A DNA stretch of 64,000 nt from Eledone cirrhosa (GCA_964016885.1 OZ024741.1:312046001-312110000), one strand, 5' to 3'. Shown: positions 17,954 through 54,503, counted from the stretch's first letter. Made by a program: numbers and translations. Notes: generated by a model from the sequence alone, not told the origin.

Positions 17954-19392
17954 AATTCCATATATGGTCAAAGTGATTGTGAAAAGTTAGTAGTAATTCT
18001 GTGATGGCAAATTAGTAGGGGAGATGGTGGCTAAACCTGCCAGTAGGAGAAAAAGGGGAGAGGGTGGAGTAGACCCAATCATGCGTTGGTAGTGCTGGCT
18101 ACAGCTGGGCATGAGGTCAAAGAAGATACTGGGGAGGGGGAGGGGGAGGAAGTCGAAACGGTAGGTAGAACAATGAGGGGTAAAAAATATATATGAAAGA
18201 AAAAATACTGAGAGTGATGAAAAGCGAATAAGTGTAAAGAAAAAAAGAATATATAAGCAAGTTCTACGACCTAAGTCTCTAGCTATTGTTAGGCTAGATA
18301 AATAAATAAATAAATAAAGAAAGAAAGAAAGAAAGAAATAAAGAAATGAATAAAGAAATAACGAAATAGGTAGATAAAATAGGAAAGACCCTTTTAAGAG
18401 GTATAAGTACGTTAATCATACGGTGACGGGTCAACAAATGGGGCCAAAATACTAAAGAAACTATCACGAAATAAATCATAAAGGTTTCTACCCCGGGCAC
18501 AAGGCCAGCAACCACCCAGTGCAGAAAAGTAAACTAGTACGAGATAATAATTCTAAGTCCCGAAAAAAATATATTAATGCTAACTCTAAAGGTACCGCCA
18601 CGCTACAAAAGTTCTTATACAAGCTACATGAAAGTTCGTACGAAGTAAAGGTAGAATACGGAAAAATAAATTCAGAATCCACCCCGCCCAAAAGAAAAGA
18701 GAAGAAAGAAATACTGAAACGAGAAATTAAGGCATAAGTGCCACTAAGAAATATAGAAGGCACGGGAAAAGGGGGAGCGGTCCGCAAAGGGGGCAAGTAT
18801 CCCAGGTCTAACACAACTGCTATAAAAAGCGGAGTCCGCCAAATCTATCATAGACTAGGGGAGGGGGTGGGGGTACTGAGGCTACGAGGGGCCAAAGGGC
18901 AGCCTCGGGTGGGCGAGAAAAAGACGCCGACAAAGAAGAAGAACTGGGGTAGAAAGACTAAGGAGGAATGGGGGAAGAAGGAAATAAAGGAAGCGGTGAA
19001 AGAATAAAAAGATCTTACGTCTCCCTTGGCAAGCAGGGGTTACCCATTGCAAAATCGGCAAGTGGGGTGTTATAGCCCGCGTCATTATGGGTTTTGAGGG
19101 CGAGGTAAGTCCTACGAAATCTATGTTTACATGCAGTAACCAGTTCATCTTTCTTGTTTAGGAGTTGGTCCGTCGAAAACAGCATTTGTAAAGTTTCCTC
19201 CGAGCATAAATTGCACGGACGGCGTCCTCCCGTGTAAGAGTTGGCTCTGGACAGTAATCTCCAAGTGAGATCATAGGTGATGTTGTTGTCCTTGAGGTCC
19301 CATATGTGACCCGAATGTGTAGTGGCGTGACGCCGGGCCGGGTTTCGGAACGTATGTCTATGTTGGTATAGCCGGGTCTTGAAGTCAGCAAT

Positions 19393-20850
19393 ATGGAGGA
19401 TAAGTTCAGCAATATGGAGGATAAACGAGACACTATATTCATACAGTTCGACATAGAGAGCTACTATGCTTCAATCACCTTACCGCTACTTACTGCTGCC
19501 TTGGACTTCGCCGAAACACTTGTGCCCATCACCAACCAGGAAAGAAAAATCATCCTCCAAGCCAGGAAGACAGTCTTACCCTTTGACAACTCTAAATGGA
19601 TGAAAAGAGCTCCCGACTCACCCTTCGACGTCAGCATGGGCGCCACGGATTCGGCGGAGGTCACAGATCTTATAGGATTATTCCTAATAGCCAAACTGAC
19701 CGATATGTTTCCTGCATTCGGTGGTGGATTGTACCGTGATGATGGAATCCTTACCCTTAAAGGGTACAACCCCAGTAATACAGATCGGGTCCGGAAACAA
19801 TTAATCAGCTTCTTCCGCGACTGGGGATTTAAAATAACCCTACAAACGTCCCTGACCCGAGTAAACTTCCTGGACGTGACCCTCGACCTCGAAAACGACC
19901 TGTACTACCCATACAGGAAACCTAATGACAACTTGCACTACATCCACCGCCGATCAAACTATCCTAGGAACATCACCAACAACCTGGTCAAAAACATTTC
20001 CCTCCGCATATCCCATTTGTCAGCTAATGAGCGGATATTCGATGAACATGCGCCTTATTACAACCAGGCCCTCAAGCGGAGTCGTTTCCGGGAGGAAATA
20101 TCCTACTGTCCAGCTCTCATTAGCGGAACCAGCAGGAGACACCGCCGCTCACGCAATGTAACATGGTTCAATCCTCCCCACAACGCCTAGGTGACAACTC
20201 CCATCGGGAAAATATTCTTTAGGCTCATTGAAAAACACTTCCCACTACAACACCACTACCACAACATAATTAACAAAAATACCATCAAACTCTCTTACAG
20301 CACTACACCAAACTTTGCACAAAACATCGTCTCCTCTAACAACAAAAAACTCAACCCCGATGGAAGAAATAACCTAAATAGCAGTGGAGAGCCGACCAGG
20401 AGGTGCAACTGTCCGGATAGATCCATTTGCCCACTCGACAATAGATGCAGAGACCTTACTGTGATCTACCTGTGCAACGTGAGGACGGACACCTCCAACA
20501 AAGCTTATATAGGACTAACCGCATGTGACTTCAAGACCCGGCTATACCAACATAGACATACCTTCCGAAACCCGACCCGGCGTCACGCCTCTACACTTTC
20601 GGGCCACATATGGGACCTCAAGGACAACAACATCACCTATGATCTCACTTGGAGATTACTGTCCAGAGCCAACTCTTACACGGGAGGACGCCGTCCGTGC
20701 AATTTATGCTCGGAGGAAACTTTACAAATGCTGTTTTCGACGGACCAACTCCTAAACAAGAAAGATGAACTGGTTACTGCATGTAAACATAGATTGCGTA
20801 GGACTTACCTCGCCCTCAAAACCCACAATGACCCGGGGGGCGGGGGGTAG
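19393..20850 (+). pseudogene. PLE reverse transcriptase + GIY-YIG endonuclease, 5'-truncated, in-frame TAG at 20188
   Basis: FDIESYYASI, LYRDDG, VNFLDVTLDL, VTWFNPP, CNCPDRSICPLDNRC linker, VIY..YIGLT..FKTR..H and CNLC..E..LN..CKH. Confidence 0.9.
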
Positions 20851-21978
20851 ACTAGGGCTATAACACCCCACTTGCCGATTTTGCAATGGGTAACCCCTGC
20901 TTGCCAAGGGAGACGTAAGATCTTCTTTTTATTCTTTTACCGCTTCCTTTATTTCCTTCTTCCCCATCCCTCCTTAGTCCTTCTACCCCAGTTCTTCTTC
21001 TTTGTCGGCGTCTTTTTTCGCCCACCCGAGGCTGCCCTTTGGCCCCTTGTAGCCTCAGTACCCCCACCCCCTCCCCTAGTCTATGATAGATTTGGCGGAC
21101 TCCGCTTTTTATAGCAGTTGTGTTAGACCTCGGATACTTGCCCCCTTTTCCGACCGCTCCCCCTTTTTCCGTGCCTTCTATATTTCTTAGTGGCACTTAT
21201 GCCCTAATTTCTCGTTTCAGTATTTCTTTCTTCTCTTTTCTTTTGGGCGGGGTGGATTCTGAATTTATTTTTCCGTATTCTACCTGTACTTCGTACGAAC
21301 TTTCATGTAGCTTGTATAAGAACTTTTGTAGCGTGGCGGAACCTTTAGAGTTAGCATTAGTATATTCTTTTCGGGACTCAGAATTATTATCTCGTACTAG
21401 TTTACTTTTCTGCACTGGGTGGTTGCTGGACTTGTGCCGGGGGTAGAAACCTTTATTATTTATTTCGTGGTAGTTTCTTTAGTATTTTGACCCCATTTGT
21501 TGACCCGTCACCGTATGATTTACGTGCTTATACCTCTTAAAAGGGTCCTTTTCTATTCCGTCCCACCTAGTTTATCTACTTATTTCGTTATTTCTTTCTT
21601 TCTTTCTTTCTTTATTTATTTATTTATTTATTTATCTAGCCTAACAATAGCTAGAGACTTAGGTCGTAGAACTTGCTTATATATTCTTTTTTCTTTACAC
21701 TTATTCGCTTTTTATCACTCTCAGTATTTTTTCTTTCATATATATATTTTTACCCCTCATTGTCTACCTACCGTTTCGACTTCCTCCCCCTCCCCCTCCC
21801 CAGTATCTTCTTTGACCTCATGCCTAACTGTAGCCGGCACTACCAACGCATGATTGGGTCTACTCCACCCCCGCCCCTTTTTCTCCTACTGGCAGGTTTA
21901 GCCACCATCTCCCCTACTAATTTGCCATCACAGAATTACTACTAACTTTTCACAATCACTTTGACCATATATGGAATT

Positions 21979-22072
21979 ACCCCTTGAGAAGCTCGGCTAT
22001 TTAAATACCAGGATAAATTTTCATTTAGTCCAGAATTAGCCGTCGAAACGGCTTGAGCTCAGCCGTCGGGGT
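21979..22072 (+). ncRNA. Type I hammerhead-like ribozyme with UUGAGAA core in PLE 3' end
   Basis: Stem I ACCCC/GGGGU, core UUGAGAA, stem II CGGCUA/UAGCCG, GAAA, stem III ACGGCU/AGCCGU, GUC triplet. Confidence 0.6.
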
Positions 22073-22082
22073 CTTACTGATT

Positions 22083-22158
<76 letters not shown>

Positions 22159-22439
22159 TTATTAAAATAACAGATTAAAGTTTAAGCAAAGAATCGCTGT
22201 TTTCACGCTTAACGGGGATCTTCTGAAACTAAAATAAAAAAATCAATCTGTGAACGCAGAAGTAAATAACGTTACACACTATATATATATATATATATAC
22301 ACACACTATATATACATATCTACACACACACAGCTACGTCATAATGTCGTAATGCAGAAAGCCAGGCATACAGACATATATTATAAGGGTGCAACGTTAT
22401 ATCTATGTATCTATCTAAAAAGAGAAAGCCTAAGAGAGA

Positions 22440-22516
<77 letters not shown>

Positions 22517-23074: not shown

Positions 23075-23181
<107 letters not shown>

Positions 23182-23184
23182 TAT

Positions 23185-23843: not shown

Positions 23844-23847
<4 letters not shown>
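23185..23847. repeat. Unclassified element with 136-bp direct repeats (period ~527), related copy 44477-44866
   Basis: 23185-23320 approximately equals 23711-23847. Flanked by (TA)n. Confidence 0.7.
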
Positions 23848-23892
<45 letters not shown>

Positions 23893-23895
<3 letters not shown>

Positions 23896-24425
23896 CGGCG
23901 ATGAATTAGTTTTGCGAGGTTTTTGATATGAAATCATGTGTCGAAACAAATATTGTTATACTTGGGGAGGGTCATATTTGTGTAATATATATTGCCAGAA
24001 TTAATAACAACACACTCACTGTTTGGTTGGTTTTCGCTTCTGTGTCCTTTATATCGGTTAATTTAATTTATTCGGTCCTCAATGTTACCATTGACTGACC
24101 AACGGTCAAAAATACAGATACAATATAGACACAAACACAGATATATATAGTCTAACAAAGTTCTTTCGTGCACATCTGCAACATCGTCAGTGGTGCTATT
24201 ATGTTTCCGCCCGTTGTATTGTATGATTACGCCATCGATATTTAGTCTGTTTATTTATTTATTTATTTGTTTAATTTGTTTGTCTTCTCAGCGCATGCGT
24301 TTGCGTGTGTGTATAGTGTTTTGTTTGATGTGTGTTCGTGATTGAGTGTCTGTATTGGTTATTGTATTCTATCTTAGTTTACTAGTGTGTGTTTATATGT
24401 ATTTCTTGTTATTGTGCTTGTGTAT

Positions 24426-24456
<31 letters not shown>

Positions 24457-25406
24457 TACTTCTCTTAGGTCAGTGTTGTTTGTTTGGGTGCTGTTGTTAT
24501 TCTGAACCGTTTTTTCGTCCTTTTAGTTTCCCTTTGTATTGGTCTATTCTTTCACCTATGCTACGAGCTATCTCGGCTATGTATGTTGTTGTCTTGTTTC
24601 TGCAAGTACCCTCTGTACATCTTTTGCTATAGACTACGTTTCTAGTTTGACAGTTTATCCGGGGGTTTACTTTACATATGATATATTTCCTATTAGTACA
24701 GTGGGTTTTCTTAAAAGGGTAGGTTTTGCTGATCAGGGATTTTATGGTTGTTCCTGGTTTTTCTACCACCTTAATCTTTAAGTGGGTCATTCTCAGGGCC
24801 TTTCTACACTGGTTAGCTAATTTCCCTCCAGGGGTAGCGTCCACAAATATGACACTCTGGTATCTCTGGTTGTCGTACCATGAGGTGGTTTTCACTATCT
24901 TATGTCTAGTCCTATCTAAGCTATTCCATGATTTACTCCTGTATATTGGGCAAATTCCTTTCATGTCCAGTTCTATGAGTGTCTTATACTTCTCCGTGGC
25001 TCCTTCGTATACTCTGATTCGGTCTCTTTGGTTGTAGCCAGAGAATTGCATACAGATTATGAAGTGTTGGATGTGTCTTTCCATTTCTGTTGGGTCGCAC
25101 ATGCGGGACACGTTCTTCATCACTCGTACCAAGTCTGCGATCAGAATATTAAACTTAGCACTACTGGACATTGCTGAGTTTTTGAGTATCAGGAATTTGG
25201 AGGCCATGGGTTTAGCATAGTGTGAGTGGAGAATTTGGGCCCTCTCGTCTATAGTGTTAATCCAGAGTTCCGTGTTTAATACAGGTAGTCTATTGTTAGG
25301 GTGTTTGGAATGGTAGTCGATAGTTACAGTTATACTCTGGTGTATGGAATTAGCTATCTGCTGGATGCTTTCCATTGTTCTACGTTCTAAATCAAACTTG
25401 TTAGTG

Positions 25407-25410
<4 letters not shown>
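23893..25410 (-). mobile_element. PLE family A fragment (RT thumb, linker, GIY-YIG, 3' UTR)
   Basis: ORF 24497-25410 has [27 protein letters not shown] and [17 protein letters not shown]. Flanked by (TA)n. Confidence 0.85.
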
Positions 25411-25494
<84 letters not shown>

Positions 25495-25584
25495 TGGTTA
25501 ATGCTGTTGTGTAACCACTTCTACCTAACTCGTCCCATGGACTGAGTGCACTACCACTACGGATATTACCTTCCAGTGTTCCAG

Positions 25585-25673
<89 letters not shown>

Positions 25674-25689
25674 CATATATATATATATG

Positions 25690-26328
25690 TGTCAGGTCAC
25701 CAGTTGGTGCTACTGGTAACATGTATCCCAGTACAACCTGTCTCATGGTCGGGTCGTTGGCGACTAAACTGGCAACCCCACCAAGGTTTCTTGGTGAGGA
25801 GGGTGACTTTGGACATCCTGCAGGACTAAAAACAAAACCTGTCAAAGGGCAAAGGAGCTCTTAAGAGTCAATGGCCATCCAAAATCACCGGGAGAGATGA
25901 CCCCTTTAGCCTTAGTCAAGGCAGAATTCTAGGAGAAGGAAAACTCTGATATAACACCTGCAACCCTGATGGTATCCAATGATGTTGACTTGTTCTTCTT
26001 TTTGGTAAATAGCATCTTGGTTAAGAGAGTGGGACTGGCTTTGTGCAGTGCCTTTGCTCACTATAAAAGCTTCACGGCACAGGCATTGCTTTATATCTGG
26101 AGATCTCTCTGCACTTGTCCTCACATGGGCCCAGCACTATGTGTCAATAATTGTCCTACCATGGGCCTAGCACTATGTGTCAATAATTGTCACAGGTGTA
26201 GTGTTTGTACCAGAGGTTTCAAGTCGCTGGCTGGACTAAAAAGTCACACTCGTTCAGCGCTTCGGTAGGGGTTATCATACATGGATGTAAAGTAGTGGCC
26301 GTACTCGAAAACGAGTTGGCAGCCACCA
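25690..26328 (+). mobile_element. Internally deleted RTE-like LINE (5' UTR joined to 3' end)
   Basis: RTE-type UTR motif CTAGGAGAAGGAAAACTCTGA. C2H2-like CSVCTRGFKSLAGLKSH just before the 3' end. Confidence 0.5.
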
Positions 26329-26395: not shown

Positions 26396-26452
<57 letters not shown>

Positions 26453-26693
26453 GTATTTACGTATCGAGAGAGAGAAAAAAGGGACGATAGGTGATACATA
26501 TAGTTGTTTGCCAAGTAGCGTATGCCAAAGGTGCTCGATACTAATGCCGGCAGTATTAAATATTCGAAGTGTTAATATTAAGTGAGCTAGAGAGTTAGCA
26601 GAGCGCAAGCACGTGGAAAAGTAAGAAATCGGAGAATAGACCGTTAAATAAACATGTTTTAACGGTCTATTCTCCAATTTCTTACTTTTCCAC

Positions 26694-26762: not shown

Positions 26763-26830
26763 AACATACACGTGTGAGTGAACATAGACGCGAAAAGAAA
26801 TATATAAGTAATAAAAAAATAAATGTAAAT

Positions 26831-27017
26831 AATTGTTTCTACTCTTGGCACCAGGCCAGCAATTATACAGTATATTACTGGTACTTTATCTTATCGACCC
26901 CGTAAGGATGAAAGGCAAAGTTAACCTCGGTGGGATTTGAACTCAGAATTGCAAGGGCCGTAACTCTATGCGTTAATTCATGGCATCTGCCCTCTACCGA
27001 TACTGCCAATCCACCGC
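26831..27017 (-). mobile_element. tRNA-derived SINE (Deu/Nin-like core)
   Basis: A box TGGCAGTATCGGT, B box GAGTTCAAATCC, core GCCTTTCATCCTTACGGGGTCGATAA. Homologous to the copies at 28143 and 59805. Confidence 0.8.
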
Positions 27018-27025
27018 ATTGTAAA

Positions 27026-27505
27026 TCTAAACTATAATAAAGGAAGGCCTGCGGGATTGCGAGCGGTTTATTTTTTTTCTATCCCGTTTGTAAAATAAGT
27101 TGGATTATTTTGAATAAATAATGAATGAATATTACATAATTTATCTACTAAATTTCGTGGCTGTTCATTAAATATATTTTGTTTATTTAAAGATTCACTA
27201 CTTTAAAATTTCTGAAATATCAACACTTCCGATGGCGATCGCTTAAATAAACCTTGTAATTTTCCTCACTAATTTTCTCATAATGCAGTTTATATATAAT
27301 ATCGTCTTTTTTAATGTAACATGGATTACGTTAAATGTAACATGGATTACATAAGACAGTGTAACGCAATCTTCGTTCAATTTCTATGTATTATATATTG
27401 TCAATTACGATTTCATTTGATATCTCATATGTACATGTATCTACCTGCGTATCATATCAATATACATGCTAGCAGAAAACCACCCGAAGTTTGTTTTTCT
27501 GCTAG
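27026..27505 (+). mobile_element. Complete non-autonomous Helitron
   Basis: A|TC start, subterminal hairpin CTAGCAGAAAA..TTTTCTGCTAG, CTAG|T end. Confidence 0.75.
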
Positions 27506-27529
27506 TAAGTAAAGAATAGCGCATAACCA

Positions 27530-27980
27530 TACACACATATATATATACATGCATGAAACATTTGTTTACATTCGTATGTAAGCATGTACGCAGACATAGA
27601 GATATGGAAATGCATATATTTAGAAAAGTGTGTATATACACAGCTAAATAAAAGTATATAGATAAATAATTATATACACTATAATATACACGTATACAGC
27701 ACACAATGCGTATACATACGTACATAAACACACAAATATATAAATATATACACGCACACACACACATATACACATATGCATATACATACAAATATACATA
27801 TACATACATACGCACATGCACACATACGTACGTGTAGAATATATACATACACATATATAGACATGAACATACACACACATATATGAATATACATATACAC
27901 ATATAAATATAAGAATACACACACATATATACATAAACACATACATATATACATACATACATAAACAGGCATATATTCAT
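27530..27980. repeat. Compound (CA/TA) low-complexity repeat
   Basis: Directly visible. Confidence 0.85.
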
Positions 27981-28142
27981 TATTATCTATGAATATATTA
28001 TGTCAAAGATAGAATTGGGGTTCCCGTTATTACAATAATGAAATGTTAAGGTGTATGTAGAAAAAAGTATAACTATTAGGTAGAAAGAAAAAGACTTTGA
28101 TTGAGTATTAAAGGTGGATGGAATGAGGGTAGTCGCATATCA

Positions 28143-28324
28143 TTTGGCACTATCGGTAGAGCGTCGGACGCCATACTTTGCAGCACAGAGTTTCGGCCCT
28201 TTATGGTCTGAGTTCAAATCCCGCCGAGGTTAATTTTGCCTTTCATCCTTACGGGGTCGATCAAATAAAGCACCAATATTACACTGGGATAATTGCTGGC
28301 CTTGTGCCAAAAGTAGAAACAATT
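28143..28324 (+). mobile_element. tRNA-derived SINE
   Basis: A and B boxes and core as in the other copies. Confidence 0.8.
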
Positions 28325-29650
28325 CTTTACTCTGAACTAAATTTATTAAATAGGAAATCTGAAATATTTCCACTTGTCCTCATATTAATCTCCTTTCTTT
28401 TCACTATTTTAGACCTATTAACTAATTTATATCAATGTAGATGTATACCTTATTCGTTTCAGTACCATTACTATCACTGTATAATAATTATTTAATTGCA
28501 CTTTCAAGCCTAAAAGTTTATAATATGTTTAACTACTATATACTGTCTACCATTCTTCACACACACCTTCTCTGATCCCTTCTATTGCAAATACAATTTA
28601 TTATAATCACCTCATCACTTTTAGGAAACTTAATAATACATTGTTTCCATACCTTTTCTCACATGCCATACTTATATTTATTTTTGCTAAATATATAACA
28701 ACCATTGTCACACCATATATTTTTTATTTAATATTAACTATTGACTACTAGTATAATTAACTTTTTTTTTTATAATGAATAGCATTTCTAGTATATATAG
28801 ATAATTTCTTTGTAATATTCATTTAAAGTTCTTTAATTTTGCAAACATTAAACCAGAAAACAATTCTTTTAAAAATTCAATACCCCTATATTTTTAGATA
28901 CTAAATTTTTCTGCTTTTTCTTATTAAATATATAGTAACTCTCTAATATATAGAATGTTTTACATAAATTACCTACTCTTTAATTTTATTTTGTTTTAAA
29001 ATTCCATGCTAAGATAGATGAGTTGTACTCTTGATGGCATATGACTTTGGCTCCTCTATTCAACTAAGTGGTTCTTTAGATGATGTGTCTTGAGTGCCTA
29101 ATTGATAATACTTCCATGTATATTGGATTTTTTACTTTAATGATTATACTTATTTTCTCAACATTACATTAGCTCCTTTGGACATTTTGAAAAGTAATTA
29201 TTATTATGACTGAATTATGTAGTCGAACATATAGTCTTGCATCTGTTTGTATGCTACACGTAAACTAAACTTTTTTAAATTTATATTTTAAATATATTTT
29301 TCATTGTACTTTAATTTATCTGTAACAGCATGCTCTTTTGATTTTTTAAACCTTTTATTGGTTTTATCTGATCCTAATTTGTATTGCATTTATCTGCTTC
29401 TATTCTTCATATGATTTTTCTGCCTCTGTTACCTTATATAAATATTTATACTTGTGCTTATCTACCATCCCATATTATGTATCCTCTAATGTTCTTATGA
29501 CAAAGTTTTGATATTATATTTCTGTTTGCCTTTTGCTATCGACTCCGCTGATTCTGGTCTTGTGCTAGGATGAAACGATCGCCAGTGATTAAATGTTTGA
29601 AAGTTTATACACTATTTGATTGCCATTTACATTGTATATATATATATATA

Positions 29651-30052: not shown

Positions 30053-30602
30053 GACATATTTCCTCCAATATCTGAAAGGTAATACAAACAATTCTCAACA
30101 ATCACTTATTGCATCACATTTTCTCTCCACCAGATATCAGAGACAACGAATATGGTTTCACAGATCTAGATATAACGGAAATATAAGTGACACTTTATCA
30201 AATCTTGTGTTCTTCACATTTTATTAATGTCTCCCGTCCTTACCCATTCTTTAATGCCCTGCATTGTTATTGCCTCTAATGAGGCACCCTGCAACTCAGA
30301 ATTTGATGAAATTATGACTTCCCAACCAAAACAAGCACAAACAGGTTGTCACGTGATCATATATTTTCTTATAAATATTTTAAGTGTGTTAGTTTGTATA
30401 AATGTATATGCCCCCCCCCCACACACCCCCACACACAAATATATACACACACACACACACACACAAATTCTAATACTGGTGGCTTAGGATCTAGCTGTCT
30501 AAACGGGCGGAGCTCAGTCGTCGGGTTACTAACTCTTTTCATATATATATGTATTTAAATACATATATGTATATATATATGTGTGTGCGTGAGAGAGAGA
30601 GT

Positions 30603-35345: not shown

Positions 35346-35399
35346 ATATATCTATTTATACATATATAGATAGGTAGATAGATACATATATATACACAC

Positions 35400-38162: not shown

Positions 38163-38261
38163 ATATATGTATAGGAAAAATTATGACCCCGACGGCAGAG
38201 CTCAAGCCGTTTTGACGGCTATTTATGGACTTTGAGTCCAGAAAAGAAACGCTAACAAAGA

Positions 38262-38925
38262 AACGCTGTACTAGTTTCAAGCTTATTAGTCTGTGCTTAT
38301 TTGTCAGTGTTGAACAAACGAGCAACGATGGTTGCTAGACACTACGGCTTAATACGGGATGTTTGTTTACAAACACACCGAGCATTATAATACATGTTCG
38401 GCGAATCCATACGTACATATATATATATATGCATGTATGTATATATATACATACTACTGTACGTCTGTATACATATATGTATGTACGTATACATACTTAT
38501 ATTTAAGTAACAGCCGTACTAAGAGTGGGAAATGAAATTTCGTTTCATTTTTTCCGTTTATCGTTTCCGGTGCACCCGGCCGATTAACCCAATCGATATG
38601 CAAATTGGGCTATTCAGCCATTAATATGCATAAGGAAAGTATATACTTTCAGACGTTCACTCATCTGGCAGGAAGGTATACGTTGCTGACGATAGCTAAT
38701 AAGCTTGAAACTAGTACAGCTTTCCTTTGTCAGTGTTGAACAAACGAGCAACGATGGTTGCTAGACACTACGGCTTAATACAGGATGTTTGTTTACAAAC
38801 ACACCGAGCATTATAATAAATGTTCGGTGAATCCATACGTACATATATAGATGTGTGAATGTATGTATATATATATATACATACTACTGTACGTCTGTAT
38901 ACATATATGTATGTACGTATACATA

Positions 38926-38927
<2 letters not shown>
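38262..38927 (+). repeat. HHR tandem repeat family B, subfamily B2 (~1.5 units, period ~427)
   Basis: Homologous to 50217-52701. HHR at 38680-38722. Short inverted HHR half at 38262-38290. Confidence 0.85.
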
Positions 38928-39001
<74 letters not shown>

Positions 39002-39122: not shown

Positions 39123-39166
39123 ATATACATGTATATATATATGTATGTATATATACATATATATAC

Positions 39167-41745
39167 GTAAGAGAGTATTGAAGTTTGCTTGAAGCATTGT
39201 GGAATAATAAGTAAATATCTTTAAGTCGTTTGGAAGCCTCGACAATGCAAATGGGTAAATCTCCGGGTAACAAGATCCGGTGGTGGAGAGAGAGATGTAG
39301 GTGGGTGTACGTTGAGATGCGTGGTGTGTATAAGATGTGTAAGACGTGTAGAAGAATGAAGGGAAGAGTATAAAGGATAAAATAAAAATAACAACACAAG
39401 AGAGAGTTACCTTGGGCGAGATTTAATAGTCCCTATATATTTCGGATTCACATCCATCAACTGGGGTTTTTTCCGGGGTGGGGGAAAGGTTGTCTGCCGG
39501 ACAGGTGCGAAACGCGTCCTCCGCTGTTTATTGTTTTGTATATCTGAGGTATTCGGCAGAGCGCGCGTGCGCCGTGAAATGAGGTCGGTCGGGCAGAGGT
39601 CAGCGGCCGAATGAGGGAGTGGGGTGGCGCTAGCTGTCAGTCCATTCTCTGCCTGTTTGTGAAATGTTACTGTGTGTGTGTGTGCGTGTGTTGTTGCCTG
39701 GTTCCTCTGTATTGGCAGTGTAGGATGTTGGTATGGTGGAATGCTACTGCGTGTGCGTGTGTGTAGTTGTCTTGTTTGTGTGTGTGTGCGTGTGGTGTGT
39801 GTTGCTGCATCGTTTGTTAACTTAAACCAGCCATCTCATTTCGCTTCTCTCTGATCGGTTGTTTATTTGCGGTTGCAGGCGTTTGATAAAAAGCGCTTCC
39901 TTGATACGTAACGCGCCGACGTTTCTTTCAGTCGCTAGAATTGTGACAATGGGCCTTCCGTCTTTGTTTCCGCATTTTTCTATGTGTTTCCGGAAAGACG
40001 AGGCCCTGGTTTTAGTGTGTTCCTTGATCCGGATGTGCAAATGTCGGATTGTGCTACCTATGTAGTATTGGTTGCACCTGTCACATTCTATCTTATACAC
40101 GACGTATTTGCGTAGGCAACAGTTCGCATGGCGTATCGGGAAGTCTCTGAGGGAGCATGCGTCAGTAGATTTCCCGGGTTTCCTGGAGAGGCATCTTCGC
40201 AGGGAGGGGCCAGAGTGGGCCAGGTGGATGTCGAGGCCCTCCCTCCGTAAAGCCTTGCGGATAGCGTTGGTGGTATTCTCGCCCAGGTGTGGCATTTTAA
40301 GGAATCACTTGCCTTGCGTGCCTCTCTGTCTCTTGTGTCTGGTGTCTCCTATTCTGTCTGTGATCGAGGTGGTGTACCCGTTCGCCTCCAGCACCTAGAG
40401 GAATCGCTTGGTATGAGTCACCACTCGCGGGATTGCTGCATCTGTTTTTGATTCGCGCGATCTCGTTCGTGATGTGTCCTCTTTTGGCACTGTTAGGGAG
40501 GGCAGACTTGTAGTGAACGAACAGGTCCTTGCAGGCTGCCTGTCGGTAGAAGTTGCAGTGGATCCTTCCCTGTTCCGTGATGTTGATTCGGAAGTCGAGG
40601 AGGGCAAGTGACCCGTCTTCGTTGGGGTGTTCAACACCGAAGTCAATGTTCTCGTCCGTGTTGTTGAACCTCTCATAGATTCTGTTCGCCGTGTCTTGGG
40701 AAGATGTGAGGATGAGGATATCGTCCACGTACCTTGAGAAAAGGCTACGGCGTTGGGGTGGCAGGCGTTGAGTGCCTTGCGTTCGAGGTTGTCCATGTAA
40801 GAGATCGCTAGAACACCTGATAGGCTTGATCCCATGGGCAATCCCGAGGTTTGTTGGTATGTTTGGTCAAGGAATCCGAAGTAGGTGTTGTCGACGACGA
40901 TGGATAGGAGTTGGTGGATGTCAGTGGTGGTGAGGCCGCAGCAGTGTAGGTCGGTGGATTGGACGCGTTCCATCAGTATATTGACGGCCGGGAGTGCCGG
41001 GACAGAGGTGTAGAGAGCGACTACATCAAGGCTGAAAGCATATCTGTTATTCCTTCTGGTGTCGAGATCCATTTGATGCAGGTGCTTCAACACCTCCTCA
41101 GAGCTGTTAACGTGTCCCGGCAAGGTGTCTAAGATGGGTTTGAGTATTCTGGCTAGGAGCCATGAAATTTTGTAGAGTGGTCCCTCCACGCTCGATACGA
41201 TGGGCCTGATCTTCAGGTCGGGTCCCTGTTTGTGTGTTTTCACGAGGTGGTAGAAGGCGGTTAGTCTGCTGTTCCTCGTGAGGAGGTTGTATCTCAGCTC
41301 CTTCGGGAGCTTCCGCCGGTCGCAGATGTTGGTCCAGGCGGCGTTGATGTACTCTTCTATCTGCGCGGGAGTGATTCCCGTGACCTTGCAGTAGAGGTTG
41401 TCATCGTCAAGGTGTTGGAGGGCCAGGGTCTTGTAGGCCTCTCTGCTGATGACGCAGAATTCTTTTCCCTTGTCGGAGGGGAGATAGATGAGGTTCTTCG
41501 ATTTTAGGTTGGAGAGAGTGGTGAGTTGAGATTTGATGAGGTTATGTATTGTGCGTGTGTGTGTGTTTGTGAAGTATATCCGAGATGGAGTGTTTTAGCC
41601 TGATGAGTTTAGTGTCGATTTCGTGGTTGGTGGGTGGGTGGTGGAGTGGGTTGTCGGGTGGTAAATGGGGAACTTGGGGTGGGTTGCGTGGGCGCTGTTA
41701 TTTTCTGTGGCGCTATTGATGGCGGTCACCCATTTAAGTTGGTAA
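39167..41745 (-). mobile_element. Penelope/Poseidon-type PLE (RT + GIY-YIG), frameshifted
   Basis: PSDKG, KTHK..RPIVS, SLDVVALYTSVP, GLPMGSSLS, YVDDIL and VVYKIECDRCNQYYIGST..RIKEH. Flanked by (TA)n. Confidence 0.9.
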
Positions 41746-41747
41746 TG

Positions 41748-43288
<1,541 letters not shown>

Positions 43289-43469
43289 CACATATAATTT
43301 AGCAAGACTCGCAACTTCAATAATGTGCAGACAAGTGCTCCATGCATATGAAGATGATAGCAGAGCTATAAACATAAGTTAAAATGGTCATACACGCTGA
43401 GACGATATATATATATATATAATGAAATGACAGGAGGCTGGACTTGTGTAAATCCTTGAAAGGTTTATT

Positions 43470-43527
43470 ATACTATGATCATTTCAATGACCGGGTTCTG
43501 TATGAATCCGGTGATATCATCAGGTAT
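43470..43527 (-). ncRNA. Type I hammerhead ribozyme (solo PLE-like 3' end)
   Basis: AUAC-CUGAUGA-stem II (ACCGG..CCGGU)-GAAA-UGAUCA-UA-GUAU. Palindromic stem III AUGAUCAU. Confidence 0.7.
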
Positions 43528-43930
43528 TTGAAATATAATAAGTGAATGCAATAGATAAAATCCATGGGGCTGAAAATCAAAGACCGGAGGACGACCGCCA
43601 TCCAGCATCTTCCACCTTTGCCGGTCGCCCTCAAGTGACGTGGCTAAAGCTTACAGTGTGCTACTATCGGTCAAATAGTGAGAAAACAGAAAGGGAGAGG
43701 AACATAAGTCAGCGTTAATATCGTGCCACAAGAAGAAAGAAAGAACACACCGAACAATATAATAAATGTTCTCTGAATCCATACGTACATATATATATAT
43801 GTGTGCATGTATGTACATATATATACATACTACTGTACATCTGTATACATATATGTATGTACGTATACATACTTATATTTAAGTAACAGCTGTACTAAGA
43901 GCGAGAAATGAAAATTCGCTTCACTTTTTC

Positions 43931-44052
<122 letters not shown>

Positions 44053-45190: not shown

Positions 45191-45939
45191 ATAAATGGAA
45201 TAGAATGAAACGAAATTTCATTTCTCACTCTTAGGACGGCACTTACTTAAATGTAAGTATGTATGTATACGTACATACATATATGTATACAGACGGACAG
45301 TACCATGTATATATATATATATATATACATACAGGCACACATATATATATATGCACATATCAGTTTACCGAACATTTATTATAATGTTCGCTTTGTTCGT
45401 TTTTAAACAAACGAGCAGCATGATTTAGTCCGTACAGTGTATATACGTGCATATACGTGCATATATATATGTGCGCCTGTATGTATATACATATATATAT
45501 ATTTATACATGCTACTGTACGTATGTATACATATATGTATGTACGTATACATACATACTTACATTTAAGTAAGTGCTGTACTAAGAGTGAGAAATGAAAT
45601 TTCGTTTCATTCTATTCCATTTATCGTTTTCAGTGCGCCTGGCCGACTGAACTCACTCTATATGCAAATTAGGCTGCTCAGCCGTTACTTTTCATGAGGA
45701 AAGTATATACTTTCTGACGTTCAACCATCTGGCAGAAAGATATACGGTGCTGACGATAGCTAACAAGCTTGAAACTAGTACATCGTTCCTGTGTCAGTGT
45801 TGAACAAAAAGGTGACGTGGTTGCCTAAACACTGTACGGCGTAAATCAGGCTGTTCGCTTGTTTACACAGGAACAAAGCGAACATTATAATAAATGTTCG
45901 GTAAACTGATACGTGCATGTGTATATGTGTGCCTATATG

Positions 45940-45960
<21 letters not shown>
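45191..45960 (+). repeat. HHR repeat family B: inverted piece (45191-45440) then first plus-strand unit
   Basis: HHR at 45744-45786: ACGGUG-CUGACGA-UAGCUAACAAGCUU-GAAA-CUAG-UA-CAUCGU. Confidence 0.85.
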
Positions 45961-45997
<37 letters not shown>

Positions 45998-45998
<1 letters not shown>

Positions 45999-46889
45999 TG
46001 GTAAATGTGTGTAATCCTTGGTACAGCTAGGTATATTAAGACAGGGGGGAATAAAAAATGGCTTCACTTGTGCTTTCAACAAATTTATTTTCTTCACAAA
46101 ATCCAAAAAGAATTTTTCTTAAAAAAATTATTTTATAAATTAAGTTGTTGGTTGTTGGTTAGGTCTTAGGAGTTCTTGGTTAACGTAGGAGGTATTGTTT
46201 CGTTTTTAGAAAGACCTTTCACGCTGAGGTGCGCTTGTCAAACTGATGTATATGTGGTGTGTTGTTCTATATATAGGGATTTAACATGTCTGTGGTGTGG
46301 TGGGTTTTCTTTTCTCCCCCTTTAATAAGTGGATGGGTATAGGTGTGTTGAAAAAGTGTTCATAGCAGTAATGAGTTGAGACGGTGAGTAGGGTTGGGTG
46401 GGGAGAAATGTAGCAAGTGCGGCCTGCCCCGGTCATTCTTGAAAAATCCTTTATTCAGGGGAAAAAGCTTTTAGTATTGCCTTTGTGTTGAGAATGGTCA
46501 CAGGCAAATCGCACCTGTCAAGTTTGTGAATAATTATTTTTTTCTTTTTTTCTCCTTAAGAATTTTTCTACGTCCATCCCAAAGTTAGTCCTTTGTTCAA
46601 CACAAACATATGTGCGCATATACGTACATACACACACGGGCATATGTAGGAATATATAGGCACACACCATCAATCACACACCCATGTACAAATACATCCA
46701 CATACATACACAAAAACATATAGAGACACATATAAAAACACACCTACACATACGTACACACACGAATATGTACTCATACCTCCACATGGGTATATATATA
46801 TATACATATATACATACATATATATATATATACATATACAAACATATACACATACACACACATATACACACACACATATAAATATATAT

Positions 46890-46922
<33 letters not shown>

Positions 46923-47209
46923 CATATATACATACATATACATACATACATATACATACATATACACACATAAAGATACATAACTAAATATACATATATA
47001 CACATACACGCACACATACACAAACACATACACACACACACACGCACATGTATACACACACACACACACATACACACATACATCTATATATATATATACA
47101 TATATATATACATACATATACACATACATATATGTACACATAAACACATACACACATATACACATACATATACACATACATATATATCCATATACATATA
47201 TATACACAC

Positions 47210-47251
<42 letters not shown>

Positions 47252-47312
47252 ATACACATACACATACACATACAAGTACATACTTACACACATACATACA
47301 TACACATACATG

Positions 47313-47354
<42 letters not shown>

Positions 47355-47657
47355 TACATATATATATACATATATATACACATACACACACATACATACA
47401 CACATACATATATACATATATATATATGTGCGTACACACGAGCACATAAAGACACATATACACATATATATACATATATATACATATATATACACATACA
47501 TCTACATACATACGTACATATACACAAACAGAAACATACACATATGTACACACATATATACATATATGCACATACATACACACACACACACATTTATATA
47601 GGTACATACACATACATACACACACACATAAACATATATATCTATCCATATATATAC

Positions 47658-47704
<47 letters not shown>

Positions 47705-47768
47705 TATATACAAACATACACACACATACATGTACATATACACATATATACACACATACACACATACA

Positions 47769-47818
<50 letters not shown>

Positions 47819-48197
47819 TACATACATACACACATCCATACATATATATATACACACATACACACATACACACACCCACATACATATATACCCACACGTA
47901 CATACATCCATACATCCCTACACACATATATGTGTGTGTCTCACCGTTTACTCAGATATTCATGTGTATACATAAGAAGAGGTGGGGGGGGGGGGTATTG
48001 AAATGGAATTTTACCTCCGAGTGTTAATTCATTTTTTAAATTCCATTTCACTAAATTTTTTAAAATTCCATTTCACTACCCCCCCCCCTCTTCTTATGTA
48101 TACACATGAATATCTGAGTAAACGGTGAGACACACACATATATGTCTGTAGGGATGTATGGATGTATGTACGTGTGGGTATATATGTATGTGGGTGT

Positions 48198-48245
<48 letters not shown>

Positions 48246-48274
48246 GGATGTGTGTATGTTTGTATGTGTGTGTG

Positions 48275-48323
<49 letters not shown>

Positions 48324-48374
48324 ATGTGTGTATATTTGTGTATATGTACATGTATGTTTGTATATATATGTGTG

Positions 48375-48421
<47 letters not shown>

Positions 48422-48818
48422 GGATAGATATGTATGTTTATGTGTGTGTGTATGAATGTGTATATACCTATATATATGTGTGTGTGTGTGTATGTATGTG
48501 CATATATGTATACATGTGTGTACATATGTGTATGTTTCTGTTCGTGTATATGTATGTATGTAGATGTATGTGTATATATATATGTATATATATGTGTATG
48601 TGTATATGTGTCTTTATGTGCTCGTGTGTACGCACATATATATATATGTATATATGTATGTGTGTATGTATGTGTGTGTATGTGTATATATATATGTATA
48701 TATATATGTATGTATATATGTATATATATATATATATGTATGTACATGTATGTGTATGTATGTATGTGTGTATGTATGTACTTGTATGTGTATGTGTATG
48801 TGTATGTGTATGTATGTG

Positions 48819-48849
<31 letters not shown>

Positions 48850-48974
48850 GTTTGTATATATATGTATATGGATATATATATATGTGTATATGTATGTGTA
48901 TATGTGTGTATGTGCCTGTATGTGTTTAAGTGTACATATATGTATGTGTATATGTATGTATATATATGTATATA

Positions 48975-49041
<67 letters not shown>

Positions 49042-49290
49042 ATGCCTCTCTCTTTATATGTGTATATATATATAGATGTGTGTGTGTGTGTGTGTGTATG
49101 CATGTATGTGTGAACGGAGGGGTATATATACGGACATATGTATATGTGTGTGTGTGTGTATACACGTGCGTGTGTGTGTGTGTATGTGTGTGTTTATGTG
49201 TGCGTGTATGTGTATATATGTATATTTAGTTATGTATCTTTATATGTGTATATGTATGTATATGTATGCATGTATATGTATGTATATATG

Positions 49291-49323
<33 letters not shown>

Positions 49324-49364
49324 ATATATATTTATATGTGTGTGTATATATGTGTGTGTATGTG

Positions 49365-49423
<59 letters not shown>

Positions 49424-50200
49424 ATATGTATATATATATATACCCATGTGGAGGTATGAGTACATATTCGTGTGTGTACGTATGTGTATGTGTGTTTTTA
49501 TATGTGTCTCTATATGTTTTTGTGTATGTATGTGGATGTATTTATACATGGGTGTGTGATTGATGGTGTGTGACTATATATTCCTACATATGCCTGTGTG
49601 TGTATGTACGTATATGCGCACATATGTGTGTGTTGAACAAAGGACTAACTTTGGGATGGACGTAGAAAAATTCTTCAGGAGAAAAAAGAAAAAATAATTA
49701 TTCACAAGCTTGACAGGTGCGATTTGCCTGTGACCATTCTCAACACAAAAGCAATACTAAAAGCTTTTTCCCCTGAATAAAGGAATTTTTCGAGAATGAC
49801 CGGGGCAGGCCGCACTTGCTACATTTCTCCCCACCCAACCCTACTCACCGTCTCAACTCATTACTGCTATGAACACTTTTTCAACAGACCTACACCCATG
49901 CACTTATTAAAGGGGGAGAGACGAAAACCCCACCACACCAAAGTCATGTTAAATCCCTATATATAGAACAACACACCACATACACATCAGTTTGACAAGC
50001 GCACCTCAGCGTGAAAGGTCTTTCTAAAAACGAAACAATACCTCCTACGTTAACCAAGAACTCCTAAGACCTAACCAACAACCAACAACTTAATTTATAT
50101 AATAATTTTTTTAAGAAAAATTCTTTTTGGATTTTGTGAAGAAAATAAATTTGGTGAAATCACAAGTGAAGCCATTTTTTCTTCCACCCTGTCTTAATAT
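45998..50200. mobile_element. 4.2-kb palindrome: ~570-bp unique ends plus ~1.4-kb compound microsatellite per arm
   Basis: 46032-48012 is approximately the reverse complement of 48062-50200. Short spacer at 48013-48030. Confidence 0.9.
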
Positions 50201-50216
50201 ATATATATATATATAT

Positions 50217-52701
<2,485 letters not shown>

Positions 52702-52860
52702 ATTGGAATAAATGCTCTGAAATAGCGATATATATGTGAATATAGACACAGAATATTCGAAAATATTCTGTATGTTTATAATAAACATTTTGAAGACCTA
52801 ATCGCTATAGAATAGAATACGTCACGTATTACAATTAGATTCTCGATAAAAGCAAGGGAA

Positions 52861-52904
52861 GTAAGTCTACGCGTTTCATTCTTGTTAGAATTCATCAGGA
52901 CTAC
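52861..52904 (-). ncRNA. Type I hammerhead ribozyme (also 53172, 53483, 53794, 54105)
   Basis: GUAGUC-CUGAUGA-AUUCU(AACA)AGAAU-GAAA-CGCG-UA-GACUUAC. Confidence 0.9.
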
Positions 52905-54503
52905 ATATCCAGTGCTTTCATCGAGAATGACACAGCTAGAGACTTATAGAATACTTAGCTGTGTACAGGAACTGGTTTGAAAGAGCGGTTGCCGGTCCGG
53001 CAGAAATTAGAAATTGGAATAAATGCTCTGAAATAGCGATATATATGTGAATATAGACACAGAATATTCGAAAATATTCTGTATGTTTATAATAAACATT
53101 TTGAAGACCTAATCGCTATAGAATAGAATACGTCACGTATTACAATTAGATTCTCGATAAAAGCAAGGGAAGTAAGTCTACGCGTTTCATTCTTGTTAGA
53201 ATTCATCAGGACTACATATCCAGTGCTTTCATCGAGAATGACACAGCTAGAGACTTATAGAATACTTAGCTGTGTACAGGAACTGGTTTGAAAGAGCGGT
53301 TGCCGGTCCGGCAGAAATTAGAAATTGGAATAAATGCTCTGAAATAGCGATATATATGTGAATATAGACACAGAATATTCGAAAATATTCTGTATGTTTA
53401 TAATAAACATTTTGAAGACCTAATCGCTATAGAATAGAATACGTCACGTATTACAATTAGATTCTCGATAAAAGCAAGGGAAGTAAGTCTACGCGTTTCA
53501 TTCTTGTTAGAATTCATCAGGACTACATATCCAGTGCTTTCATCGAGAATGACACAGCTAGAGACTTATAGAATACTTAGCTGTGTACAGGAACTGGTTT
53601 GAAAGAGCGGTTGCCGGTCCGGCAGAAATTAGAAATTGGAATAAATGCTCTGAAATAGCGATATATATGTGAATATAGACACAGAATATTCGAAAATATT
53701 CTGTATGTTTATAATAAACATTTTGAAGACCTAATCGCTATAGAATAGAATACGTCACGTATTACAATTAGATTCTCGATAAAAGCAAGGGAAGTAAGTC
53801 TACGCGTTTCATTCTTGTTAGAATTCATCAGGACTACATATCCAGTGCTTTCATCGAGAATGACACAGCTAGAGACTTATAGAATACTTAGCTGTGTACA
53901 GGAACTGGTTTGAAAGAGCGGTTGCCGGTCCGGCAGAAATTAGAAATTGGAATAAATGCTCTGAAATAGCGATATATATGTGAATATAGACACAGAATAT
54001 TCGAAAATATTCTGTATGTTTATAATAAACATTTTGAAGACCTAATCGCTATAGAATAGAATACGTCACGTATTACAATTAGATTCTCGATAAAAGCAAG
54101 GGAAGTAAGTCTACGCGTTTCATTCTTGTTAGAATTCATCAGGACTACATATCCAGTGCTTTCATCGAGAATGACACAGCTAGAGACTTATAGAATACTT
54201 AGCTGTGTACAGGAACTGGTTTGAAAGAGCGGTTGCCGGTCCGGCAGAAATTAGAAATTGGAATAAATGCTCTGAAATAGCGATATATATGTGAATATAG
54301 ACACAGAATATTTTCGAATATAGACACAGAATATTTTCGAATATTCTGTGTCTATATTCACATATATATCGCTATTTCAGAGCATTTATTCCAATTTCTA
54401 ATTTCTGCCGGACCGGCAACCGCTCTTTCAAACCAGTTCCTGTACACAGCTAAGTATTCTATAAGTCTCTAGCTGTGTCATTCTCGATGAAAGCACTGGA
54501 TAT

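Follow-up and report, generated by a model that had tools for sequence, protein, structure and literature searches.

Five fold-back insertions lie within a window of 64,000 nt from Eledone cirrhosa (GCA_964016885.1 OZ024741.1:312046001-312110000), and each carries a short direct duplication at the junction from which its arms diverge. The locus raises the question of how these duplications were made, and whether they connect non-coding hammerhead repeats with the machinery of Penelope-type elements (PLEs). A sequence-only reading had proposed that one PLE RT, slipping and re-priming, made all five.

Fold-back insertions and junction duplications

We located the fold-back arms by self-BLAST with microsatellites masked, the unmasked version being swamped by microsatellites. 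The insertions share a common geometry, as first described: two 5'-truncated copies, head to head, in a (TA)n site. The arms and duplications are as follows.

Junction 1, left arm: 17769–19387, minus strand; 5'-truncated predicted Hydra-type PLE, end of EN and 3' UTR, ending in (TA)n
Junction 1, duplication: 19385–19424, plus strand; 19 nt twice, spacer GT
Junction 1, right arm: 19404–22084, plus strand; predicted Hydra-type PLE, partial RT and C-terminal GIY-YIG-type EN, 3' UTR, (TA)n end
Junction 2, left arm: 41865–42649, minus strand; 3' end of a predicted Neptune-type PLE, type I hammerhead core at 42066
Junction 2, duplication: 42642–42666, plus strand; 10 nt 2.5 times, AT-only
Junction 2, right arm: 42659–43224, plus strand; thumb, linker and GIY-YIG, internal deletion of ~0.6 kb
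Junction 3, left arm: 45191–45440, minus strand; half unit of putative retrozyme family B, its 3' end being the 'long' one (+56 nt)
Junction 3, duplication: 45441–45465, plus strand; 10 nt twice, flanking microhomology 5 nt
Junction 3, right arm: 45443–56328, plus strand; family B array, 8 units of ~470–580 nt and a partial unit
Junction 4, left arm: 46000–48030, minus strand (from the tail); non-coding, ~560 nt unique and 1.3 kb TA/CA-rich
Junction 4, duplication: 48031–48078, plus strand; 23/24 nt twice, one indel, no clear microhomology
Junction 4, right arm: 48061–50197, plus strand; its end lies in a family B unit's (TA)n run
Junction 5, left arm: 52702–54312, minus strand; 5.2 units of a putative 311-bp retrozyme, 35-nt longer 3' end
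Junction 5, duplication: 54293–54344, plus strand; 23 nt twice, spanning the join, 6-nt microhomology
Junction 5, right arm: 54326–55291, plus strand; 3.1 units

All five duplications exist where they had been reported. Tandem Repeats Finder places them at 19385–19424, 42642–42666, 45437–45465, 48031–48078 and 54285–54344, and arm alignments place the left-arm inner ends at 19387, 42649, ~45440, 48013–48039 and ~54312, always inside the duplication or at most 5 bp away. The duplicated units measure 10–25 nt. Strict detection yields 17 duplications across the window (1.0% of non-microsatellite positions) and matches four of the five junctions; junction 4 is missed because a 1-nt indel distinguishes its copies. 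Tolerant detection (unit of at least 10 nt, at most 10% edits, spacer 0–3) yields 56, with 3.4% coverage, and matches all five.

Four further joins, absent from the first list, were recovered, none with an assigned strand.

38171–38930: chimeric fold-back of a Hydra-like 3' end and family B' pieces
43420–43933: heterologous head-to-head join at ~43743, a hammerhead-bearing pLTR-like piece (minus strand) and a family B' piece (plus strand)
17277–17711: fold-back in (TA)n, arms 17314–17419 and 17604–17711
26452–26690: fold-back in (TA)n, near-perfect centre at ~26655

The chimera begins with an antisense Hydra-like 3' end (38171–38231, 87% to element 1), followed by a 6-bp snap-back stem and an 11-nt duplication at 38243–38267. 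Its antisense family B' piece runs to 38289; a 10-nt insert with an imperfect 11-nt duplication (38281–38305) follows, and the sense family B' arm starts 9 nt after the predicted cleavage site. No duplication was detected at the heterologous join near 43743 or at either candidate join of the 17.3-kb fold-back, and the fold-back at 26452–26690 shows a stutter of 3–4 nt only.

Within this window, then, the duplications stand far above local background: six of the nine head-to-head junctions carry one, against a background of 3.4% (binomial 1.3e-7), and local jitter of ±2 kb never reached six matches among the nine in 200,000 trials. Plain 5' ends carry none (0/8; Fisher p = 0.009 against the inverted junctions). 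Among the four previously unlisted inverted junctions only one has a duplication, an imperfect one (p = 0.13); with one chimeric junction added, two of five do (p = 0.011). The TIR element at 13265–14326 and the dispersed SINE-like pairs at 10012–11770 and 26825–28330 were omitted because they are not head-to-head joins in (TA)n. The sample is a single window, picked for showing the pattern, which we count against the explanation preferred below.

Identity of the inserted sequences

The sequence-only reading had labelled element 1 a Naiad. The Naiad clade is defined by a GIY-YIG endonuclease N-terminal to the RT (PMC8557442), and the domain order here, RT (19372–20190) followed by nuclease (20191–20850), rules that assignment out. 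By motif, element 1 fits the Hydra clade: CNCPDRSIC, CNLC and CKH within 20191–20850 correspond to the Hydra CxCX5C, CxxC and CxH, CCHH is lacking as in Hydra, and both ends lie in (TA)n, again as in Hydra. The Hydra motifs RWK and DKT, N-terminal to the RT core, fall in a region truncated in the window; among homologues, RW[KR] and DKT occur in five of six printed sequences. Pfam recognised neither half of the element. The canonical hammerhead core CUGANGA...GAAA, expected in a Hydra pLTR, is absent from both strands of 17769–22084; the copy may have decayed or be a variant. The right arm has a stop codon at 20188.

Element 2, previously 'PLE family A', is assigned by its motifs to the Neptune type, defined by a C-terminal GIY-YIG with a CX2-5CxxC linker and a hammerhead in the 3' repeat: it has the linker CIDNKCITC, a C-terminal GIY-YIG (PF01541, E = 2e-4, below the curated cut-off) and the hammerhead. 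Neptune and Nematis both fit. A homologue search with the junction 2 protein gave no match among 297 candidates. When its relative at 24500–25399 served as query, the YR-to-W spacing was 22 in 27 of the 29 rows in which both were located (41 aligned), versus 16 at junction 2, where either an 18-nt deletion just right of the join or a coincidental LYR would account for the value. The right arm starts between 42659 and 42665, and the duplication either spans a join made on 5-nt microhomology or reflects iterative copying from the left end.

The remaining insertions are non-coding. The type I hammerhead motif has 17 matches in the window and none in each of 20 shuffles; it occurs in tandem units of the 311-bp array (8/8 full units, five in the left arm and three in the right), of family B (intact in 5/8 units of the junction 3 right arm) and of family B' (3 units). 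These repeats match the unit definition of non-LTR retrozymes, with predicted self-cleaving activity. Monomer folds give no significant hammerhead structure (z from −2.0 to +0.2), and an Rfam scan of the window returned no hammerhead family among the 150 of 230 matches listed, which were below-threshold miRNA-like matches on TA repeats. The left arm at junction 3 can be assigned to no single family B unit; the right-arm array, interrupted by insertions 4 and 5, has its end at the 'short' 3' site. At junction 4, whose arms are 96.6–96.7% identical, the unique arm of the 4.2-kb palindrome contains no ORF and no hammerhead core motif, and had no match in a phage collection, an unsuitable and weak comparison. 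Of the marks of a PLE-type insertion, this palindrome lacks both RT/EN homology and a hammerhead, and has (TA)n at both ends and a one-arm tail of 32 nt, within the 30–40 nt range. Because it has neither ORF nor hammerhead, its strand, and with it the claim that sense strands diverge from this junction, is taken from the tail only. We count its lack of both features, and the non-significant folds, against our explanation.

At all five junctions (TA)n lies at both outer ends, and one arm extends 32–76 nt further outside, like a PLE 'tail': 76 (17769–17844, missing from the right arm), 60 (43165–43224), 56, 32 and 35 nt, with 37 nt at the 17.3-kb fold-back. Three tails (56–76 nt) exceed the published 30–40 nt, which also weighs against our explanation. 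The five outer ends of families B and B' fall at two positions, three long and two short. Any target-site duplication is hidden because the targets are (TA)n. The hammerhead repeats thus insert as PLEs do, with the same head-to-head, (TA)n and tail geometry, as the sequence-only reading had it. Its further claim, of a direct link between these repeats and PLE machinery through the duplication, is not supported: host trans SD-MMEJ is described as leaving such a scar too (PMC5728401), and the duplications at junctions 2, 3 and 5 may be later slippage. The link rests better on the tails, the recurrent 3' ends and the two chimeric insertions (38171–38930, 43420–43933), and this shared anatomy suggests that the ribozyme repeats are moved by Penelope enzymes.

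Origin of the duplications

The explanation we favour, with modest confidence, is that these are double-ended Penelope-type insertions whose duplications were made during the joining of two cDNA 3' ends. At a single (TA)n site the PLE nuclease would presumably nick both strands, each of them then priming a cDNA, and the use of two alternative RNA sites for RT starts would yield the one-arm tail. One cDNA end may then anneal on the other by microhomology, extend by 10–25 nt, fall off, re-anneal and extend again, leaving a tandem duplication. The 311-bp and family B hammerhead repeats would be non-autonomous passengers of PLE-type machinery. The head-to-head arms, the outer (TA)n, the one longer 3' end, the duplications at the joins and, at most joins, microhomologies of 2–10 nt are read directly from the sequence. 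In vitro, a purified Poseidon PLE cuts both strands of its target, extends each and starts at two sites, which define the tail (PMC11167929), and trans SD-MMEJ anneals across, synthesises, dissociates and re-anneals (PMC5728401). We regard it as probable that the duplications were formed during joining, whatever the enzyme.

Junction 1 (arms 96–97% identical) supports slip-and-re-prime most clearly. The left arm alone has the 76-nt tail and the right arm has 1.1 kb missing from the left; neither contains the other, and therefore two cDNAs are required. The first join lies on a TCA microhomology, and the second copy starts 1–2 nt further 5' in the element than the first, so that a free template end was apparently still present at that time. 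The GTTC at the start of the second copy agrees with conserved W-F codons: all 15 homologues with a located motif (of 23) have WF or FF, 14 of them WF. The 38243 duplication likewise restarts 2 nt earlier. This timing argument rests on 1–2 nt and a protein motif rather than a DNA consensus, a point we hold against it.

The joining polymerase would, at a little under even chances, be a Pol theta-type enzyme of host alternative end joining; a PLE RT is the less likely candidate. A templated direct repeat with microhomology, the mark of SD-MMEJ, is present at junctions 1, 2, 3 and 5 and at 38243 and 38290, making a role for Pol theta a candidate, and L1 inversion junctions have been ascribed to c-NHEJ or MMEJ (PMC11702581). 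The match to host trans SD-MMEJ means that the scar alone does not implicate the PLE RT. The proposal that one PLE RT made all five is not supported by the two coding elements, which appear to belong to different clades; a scar common to both clades and to non-coding repeats is what a host enzyme would give.

It is nonetheless possible, if rather doubtful, that the PLE RT itself slips back and recopies 10–25 nt, at a template switch or on starting the second strand on the other cDNA, in a telomerase-like realignment, as the sequence-only reading held. The 38243 duplication points to an RT and against a host-enzyme step: two antisense pieces of one cDNA strand flank it, at what looks like a switch of RNA template, and an RNA template jump is its simplest account. 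Six of nine is also a high rate for a host TMEJ scar. PLE RTs are placed as sisters to telomerase (PMC8557442), and R2 insertions have 'extra template' and 'snap-back' 5' junctions (PMC11331408). Besides the sharing of the scar between clades, the plain 5' ends speak against this account, although a duplication made of TA would be invisible there. No feature in the window distinguishes RT from host polymerase, which counts against both this account and ours. The bolder version, that PLE RTs keep a telomerase-like copy, slip-back and recopy step and use it, at a (TA)n site nicked on both strands, to stitch together two cDNAs that may even stem from different RNAs, is unlikely.

Two other accounts are improbable to the same degree. 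Replication slippage or repair after insertion, at hairpin- or cruciform-forming palindrome centres, could have produced duplications 2, 3 and 5, which are bounded by direct microhomology of 5–6 nt, two of them (2 and 3) low-complexity; junctions 4 and 5 are near-perfect palindrome centres. Junctions 1–3 are not, their paired inner ends lying 1138, ~345 and ~390 nt apart, nor is 38243; duplications 1 and 4 have at most 2 nt of bounding microhomology; and the youngest insertion, that at junction 5 with its 8 identical full units, already carries its duplication. Snap-back of a single cDNA or antisense template, the duplication being a failed first priming, is compatible with junctions 2, 4 and 5, where one arm is contained in the other. 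It was proposed for Adineta Penelope from palindromes at inverted junctions (PMC3846280), and junction 5, with identical arms, is joined on a 10-nt internal quasi-palindrome of the 311-bp unit; a mirror-SNP check there had zero variants among 8 units to score. Snap-back cannot yield the mutual non-containment of junction 1 or the heterologous joins at 38290 and 43743, and it leaves the recurrent short and long 3' ends unexplained.

Very improbable explanations are fold-back artefacts of assembly or long reads, and coincidence in AT-rich DNA: such structures do trouble assemblies (PMC8557442), the 311-bp array is 100% homogeneous and duplication 2 AT-only, but arms diverge by 2–7% at junctions 1–4, the tails show asymmetry and differ by family, the two copies differ in register at junctions 1 and 4, and background is 1.0–3.4%.

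Relation to known systems

Several features of the window lend themselves to counting, namely the head-to-head arms, the two 3' start sites, the stutters at junctions and the PLE–retrozyme chimeras. If stitching by PLE RT is true, the 10–25 nt stutter with a one-sided tail would be a genome-readable signature of PLE transposition, and PLE enzymes would insert hammerhead retrozyme arrays, at times together with PLE RNA. Should the stutter be no more than host repair, it would modestly confirm that PLE fold-backs are two cDNAs united by alternative end joining. The formation of inverted PLE insertions is described as open in the field (PMC8557442).

The inverted partial-tandem insertions of EN+ PLEs (Craig et al. 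2021, PMC8557442; PMC3846280) have the same inverted 5'-truncated copy at the 5' end, one-end tail and (TA)n targets. The available portions of these sources do not mention junction duplications, seen here, and give tails of 30–40 nt, shorter than three of ours; here non-coding hammerhead arrays also share the anatomy. The in vitro reaction of Poseidon PAc (Frangieh et al. 2024, PMC11167929) shows the same cutting and extension of both target strands, two RT start sites and an AT-rich target. It supplies the first two steps of our model, although the element belongs to another clade and the joining of two cDNAs is not part of that reconstitution.

Non-LTR retrozymes (Cervera and de la Pena 2020, PMC7229834; Li, Clavereau, Pollet, bioRxiv 10.64898/2026.07.22.740005) have the same tandem non-coding units with one type I hammerhead each, and PLEs have been proposed as their mobilising partner. 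The published evidence consists of shared hammerheads, co-occurrence and pLTR homology, whereas ours is insertion anatomy—head-to-head arms, tails and chimeras—and family B units (~470–580 nt) exceed the 170–400 nt retrozyme RNAs of 2020 (PMC7229834).

L1 twin priming (PMC2912911, PMC11702581, bioRxiv 10.1101/2024.08.27.596794) likewise involves two cDNAs, one cut site, a microhomology join and small deletions or duplications at the inversion point. In L1, however, the inverted segment originates upstream within the same RNA, and what is called a 'duplication' is the overlap of the inverted arms; in the present insertions the 3' end is found in both arms, and the duplicated sequence forms a direct tandem copy. 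Trans and loop-out SD-MMEJ, attributed to Pol theta (PMC5728401), leave the same direct repeat at the join, alongside snap-back inverted copies; they were described at nuclease breaks in Drosophila, whereas the scars reported here lie at retroelement cDNA ends and are known from sequence.

Duplications at head-to-head joins

The window is animal-like in character, AT-rich (38% GC) and crowded with (TA)n runs and retroelement debris. Short tandem duplications had been claimed at the inversion junctions of five fold-back insertions:

Junction 1, ~19385: Penelope-like element (PLE), element 1
Junction 2, ~42642: PLE, element 2
Junction 3, ~45441: family B retrozyme array
Junction 4, ~48031: 4.2-kb palindrome
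Junction 5, ~54293: 311-bp retrozyme array

Sequence reading and a tandem repeat listing located all five at the coordinates claimed, and arm alignment placed each within 5 bp of the orientation switch (5/5). Under a strict detector, short tandem duplications in the window number 17, and 4/5 junctions are matched, junction 4 being missed; 1.0% of non-microsatellite positions lie within 5 bp of such a duplication. A tolerant detector (unit at least 10 nt, up to 10% edits, spacer 0–3) finds 56 and matches 5/5 junctions, with a background of 3.4%. Head-to-head joins were collected by masked self-BLAST and direct reading of the sequence, with bases 6401–9299 and 31901–37899 covered by BLAST and ORF listing alone. 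Nine were found: the five listed, ~17419/17604, 26655, 38290 and 43743. A qualifying duplication is present at 6/9 joins (binomial 1.3e-7; 0/200,000 local jitters gave six matches) versus 0/8 plain 5' ends (Fisher p = 0.009), enrichment values that are optimistic because the window was chosen for showing the pattern. Three 5'-truncated PLEs with no inverted partner, at 23900–25411 (−), 39165–41745 (−) and ~57200–58475 (−), adjoin (TA)n at their 5' ends; as a control set, these ends carry no duplication. Of the four joins outside the original list, 38290 alone qualifies (p = 0.13), its copies differing by one mismatch. The stutter at 26655 is 3–4 nt, below qualifying, and a search at ~17419/17604 and 43743 detected no duplication. 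A tenth junction, the same-strand switch at 38243, carries a perfect 11-nt duplication; with it, the held-out set reaches 2/5 (p = 0.011). The duplications are real and enriched in this window. That part of the sequence-only interpretation stands, whereas its Naiad label does not, and the PLE reverse transcriptase (RT) it invoked is weighted below a host enzyme.

Elsewhere in the window, two decayed LINE copies have an 18-bp duplication between them, at 35220. Tandem duplications of 91 bp (60478–60660) and 36 bp (26115–26191) stand alone, neither with a definable junction.

Identity of the elements

In element 1 the RT precedes the nuclease, and there are CxxC/CxH motifs besides a CxCX5C linker. 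This order excludes Naiad, where the nuclease is N-terminal, and by domain order and motifs the element agrees with the PMC8557442 definition of the Hydra clade; a scan of element 1 for a hammerhead core, a Hydra feature, found none. Element 2, Neptune-type by motif, combines a C-x4-C-x2-C linker with a 3'-repeat hammerhead; its GIY-YIG match scores under the Pfam cut-off. A type I hammerhead pattern with palindromic stem III is found in 8/8 units of the 311-bp array, 5/8 of family B and 3 units of family B', with 17 matches in the window versus 0 in 20 shuffles; the predicted folds of the retrozyme monomers are not significant. As proposed, the sense strands of these arrays run outward from junctions 3 and 5. 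The arms of the 4.2-kb palindrome are 96.6% identical, and a search of it returned no ORF or hammerhead. Both the palindrome and the 311-bp array sit in (TA)n runs within the family B array.

Two family B units, 51825–52175 and 55376–55726, lie on either side of unit 6 and the 311-bp insertion. They share 99.1% identity (remaining pairs, 91.5–94.9%), pointing to recent unit duplication or conversion, perhaps in connection with that insertion. Hammerhead-like cores in pLTR-like sequence at 24190 (−), 43523 (−) and 63406 (+) appear in a relaxed scan only. The window also holds:

440–3500 (−) and 31814–37931 (+): decayed APE-endonuclease/RT LINE copies, 65–75% alike
6317–9030 (−): broken ORFs, presumably resembling a Helitron Rep/PIF1-helicase gene
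13265–14326: element of ~1.06 kb that ends at TA, bounded by terminal inverted repeats of 180 bp in which 34-bp subrepeats lie in tandem; a probable non-autonomous DNA transposon
58686–59376: array of three 232-bp units, no hammerhead core found

Outer ends and junction anatomy

All five fold-backs have (TA)n at both outer ends, and one arm extends further at its outer end, by 76, 60, 56, 32 and 35 nt at junctions 1–5; the fold-back at ~17.3 kb has a 37-nt extension. In a DNA transposon bounded by terminal inverted repeats, the arms should agree right up to their final base. A short Hydra-like 3' end at 30492–30554 (+), 81% to element 1, has its terminus in (TA)n, likewise at the 'short' site. 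Five outer ends of families B and B' share only two positions. Published PLE tails are 30–40 nt long and confined to one end (PMC8557442); they match two RT start sites of a purified Poseidon element, for which cleavage and extension of both strands of the target were shown (PMC11167929).

At junction 1, the tail is on the left arm only and 1.1 kb on the right arm only. Each arm thus has sequence missing from the other, which self-priming on a single cDNA, previously put forward for Adineta elements (PMC3846280), cannot produce; as judged from its arms, junction 1 needs two cDNAs. Self-priming and the two-cDNA route would both be possible for junctions 2, 4 and 5.

The duplications differ in structure. 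At junction 1, the arms are joined via 3-nt microhomology and 16 nt further were copied; in the second copy the right arm restarts 1–2 nt nearer its 5' end, with letters matching the codons for W-F in homologues (motif located in 15/23: WF in 14, FF in 1). This earlier restart implies that the template end was still free and that the duplication would date from joining, an argument that stands on 1–2 nt. The 38243 duplication also restarts 2 nt earlier and is preceded by a 6-bp snap-back stem. Junction 3 duplicates the right arm's first 10 nt, with 5-nt microhomology. The AT-only duplication at junction 2 has two readings, one needing an 18-nt deletion next to the join. At junction 4 the copies differ by one indel, with no clear microhomology at the putative arm ends. 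The join at junction 5 is supplied by a 10-nt internal quasi-palindrome, and its duplication crosses the join, bounded by 6-nt microhomology. Cruciform repair could apply to junctions 4 and 5 only: paired ends at junctions 1–3 lie 345–1138 nt apart, hence these are not palindrome centres.

Probable retrozyme mobilization and a proposed joining step

Movement of animal retrozymes by PLEs is an existing proposal. One study argued it from their co-existence, tandem form and common possession of hammerheads (PMC7229834), another from pLTR homology together with co-occurrence (bioRxiv 10.64898/2026.07.22.740005). Two retrozyme families in the window display the full PLE insertion anatomy, and B' is fused to other sequence without intervening (TA)n in two insertions:

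38171–38930: chimeric fold-back of retrozyme B' and a Hydra-like 3' end that matches element 1 at 87% across 61 nt
43420–43933: retrozyme B' and a hammerhead-bearing pLTR-like piece

In the former, the sense arm starts 9 nt past the predicted hammerhead cleavage site, and the antisense piece covers that site. Such chimeras could also be imitated by separate insertions that landed side by side, or by a subsequent deletion. The 311-bp units are identical across both arms, which fits recent copying of a single RNA, circular or multimeric; assembly collapse would give the same picture. Judging by this anatomy, the 311-bp and family B/B' arrays were probably mobilized by PLEs.

Earlier work had described each component separately: PLE insertions in inverted form, tails, retrozymes, and the scars of synthesis-dependent end joining. 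Among the main texts searched, few of them from subscription journals, we found neither tandem duplications at PLE junctions nor head-to-head tailed retrozyme arrays; the words 'inverted' and 'opposite' are absent from PMC7229834.

We propose that the (TA)n target would be nicked on both strands and two TPRT reactions would begin at two start sites, giving 5'-truncated cDNAs. Their single-stranded 3' ends would then be joined by annealing, extension, dissociation and re-annealing. The joining polymerase is tentatively a host enzyme, although sequence does not separate it from the PLE RT; we weight the host enzyme higher because the scar is common to two PLE clades and non-coding repeats. The PLE RT itself appears a less likely candidate, despite the resemblance of the 38243 case to an RNA template jump and the extra-template and snap-back junctions described for R2 (PMC11331408). 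Inversion junctions of L1 have been attributed to c-NHEJ or MMEJ (PMC11702581). The final joining step proposed here has the same geometry as trans SD-MMEJ, in which annealing, extension, dissociation and re-annealing are ascribed to Pol theta (PMC5728401).
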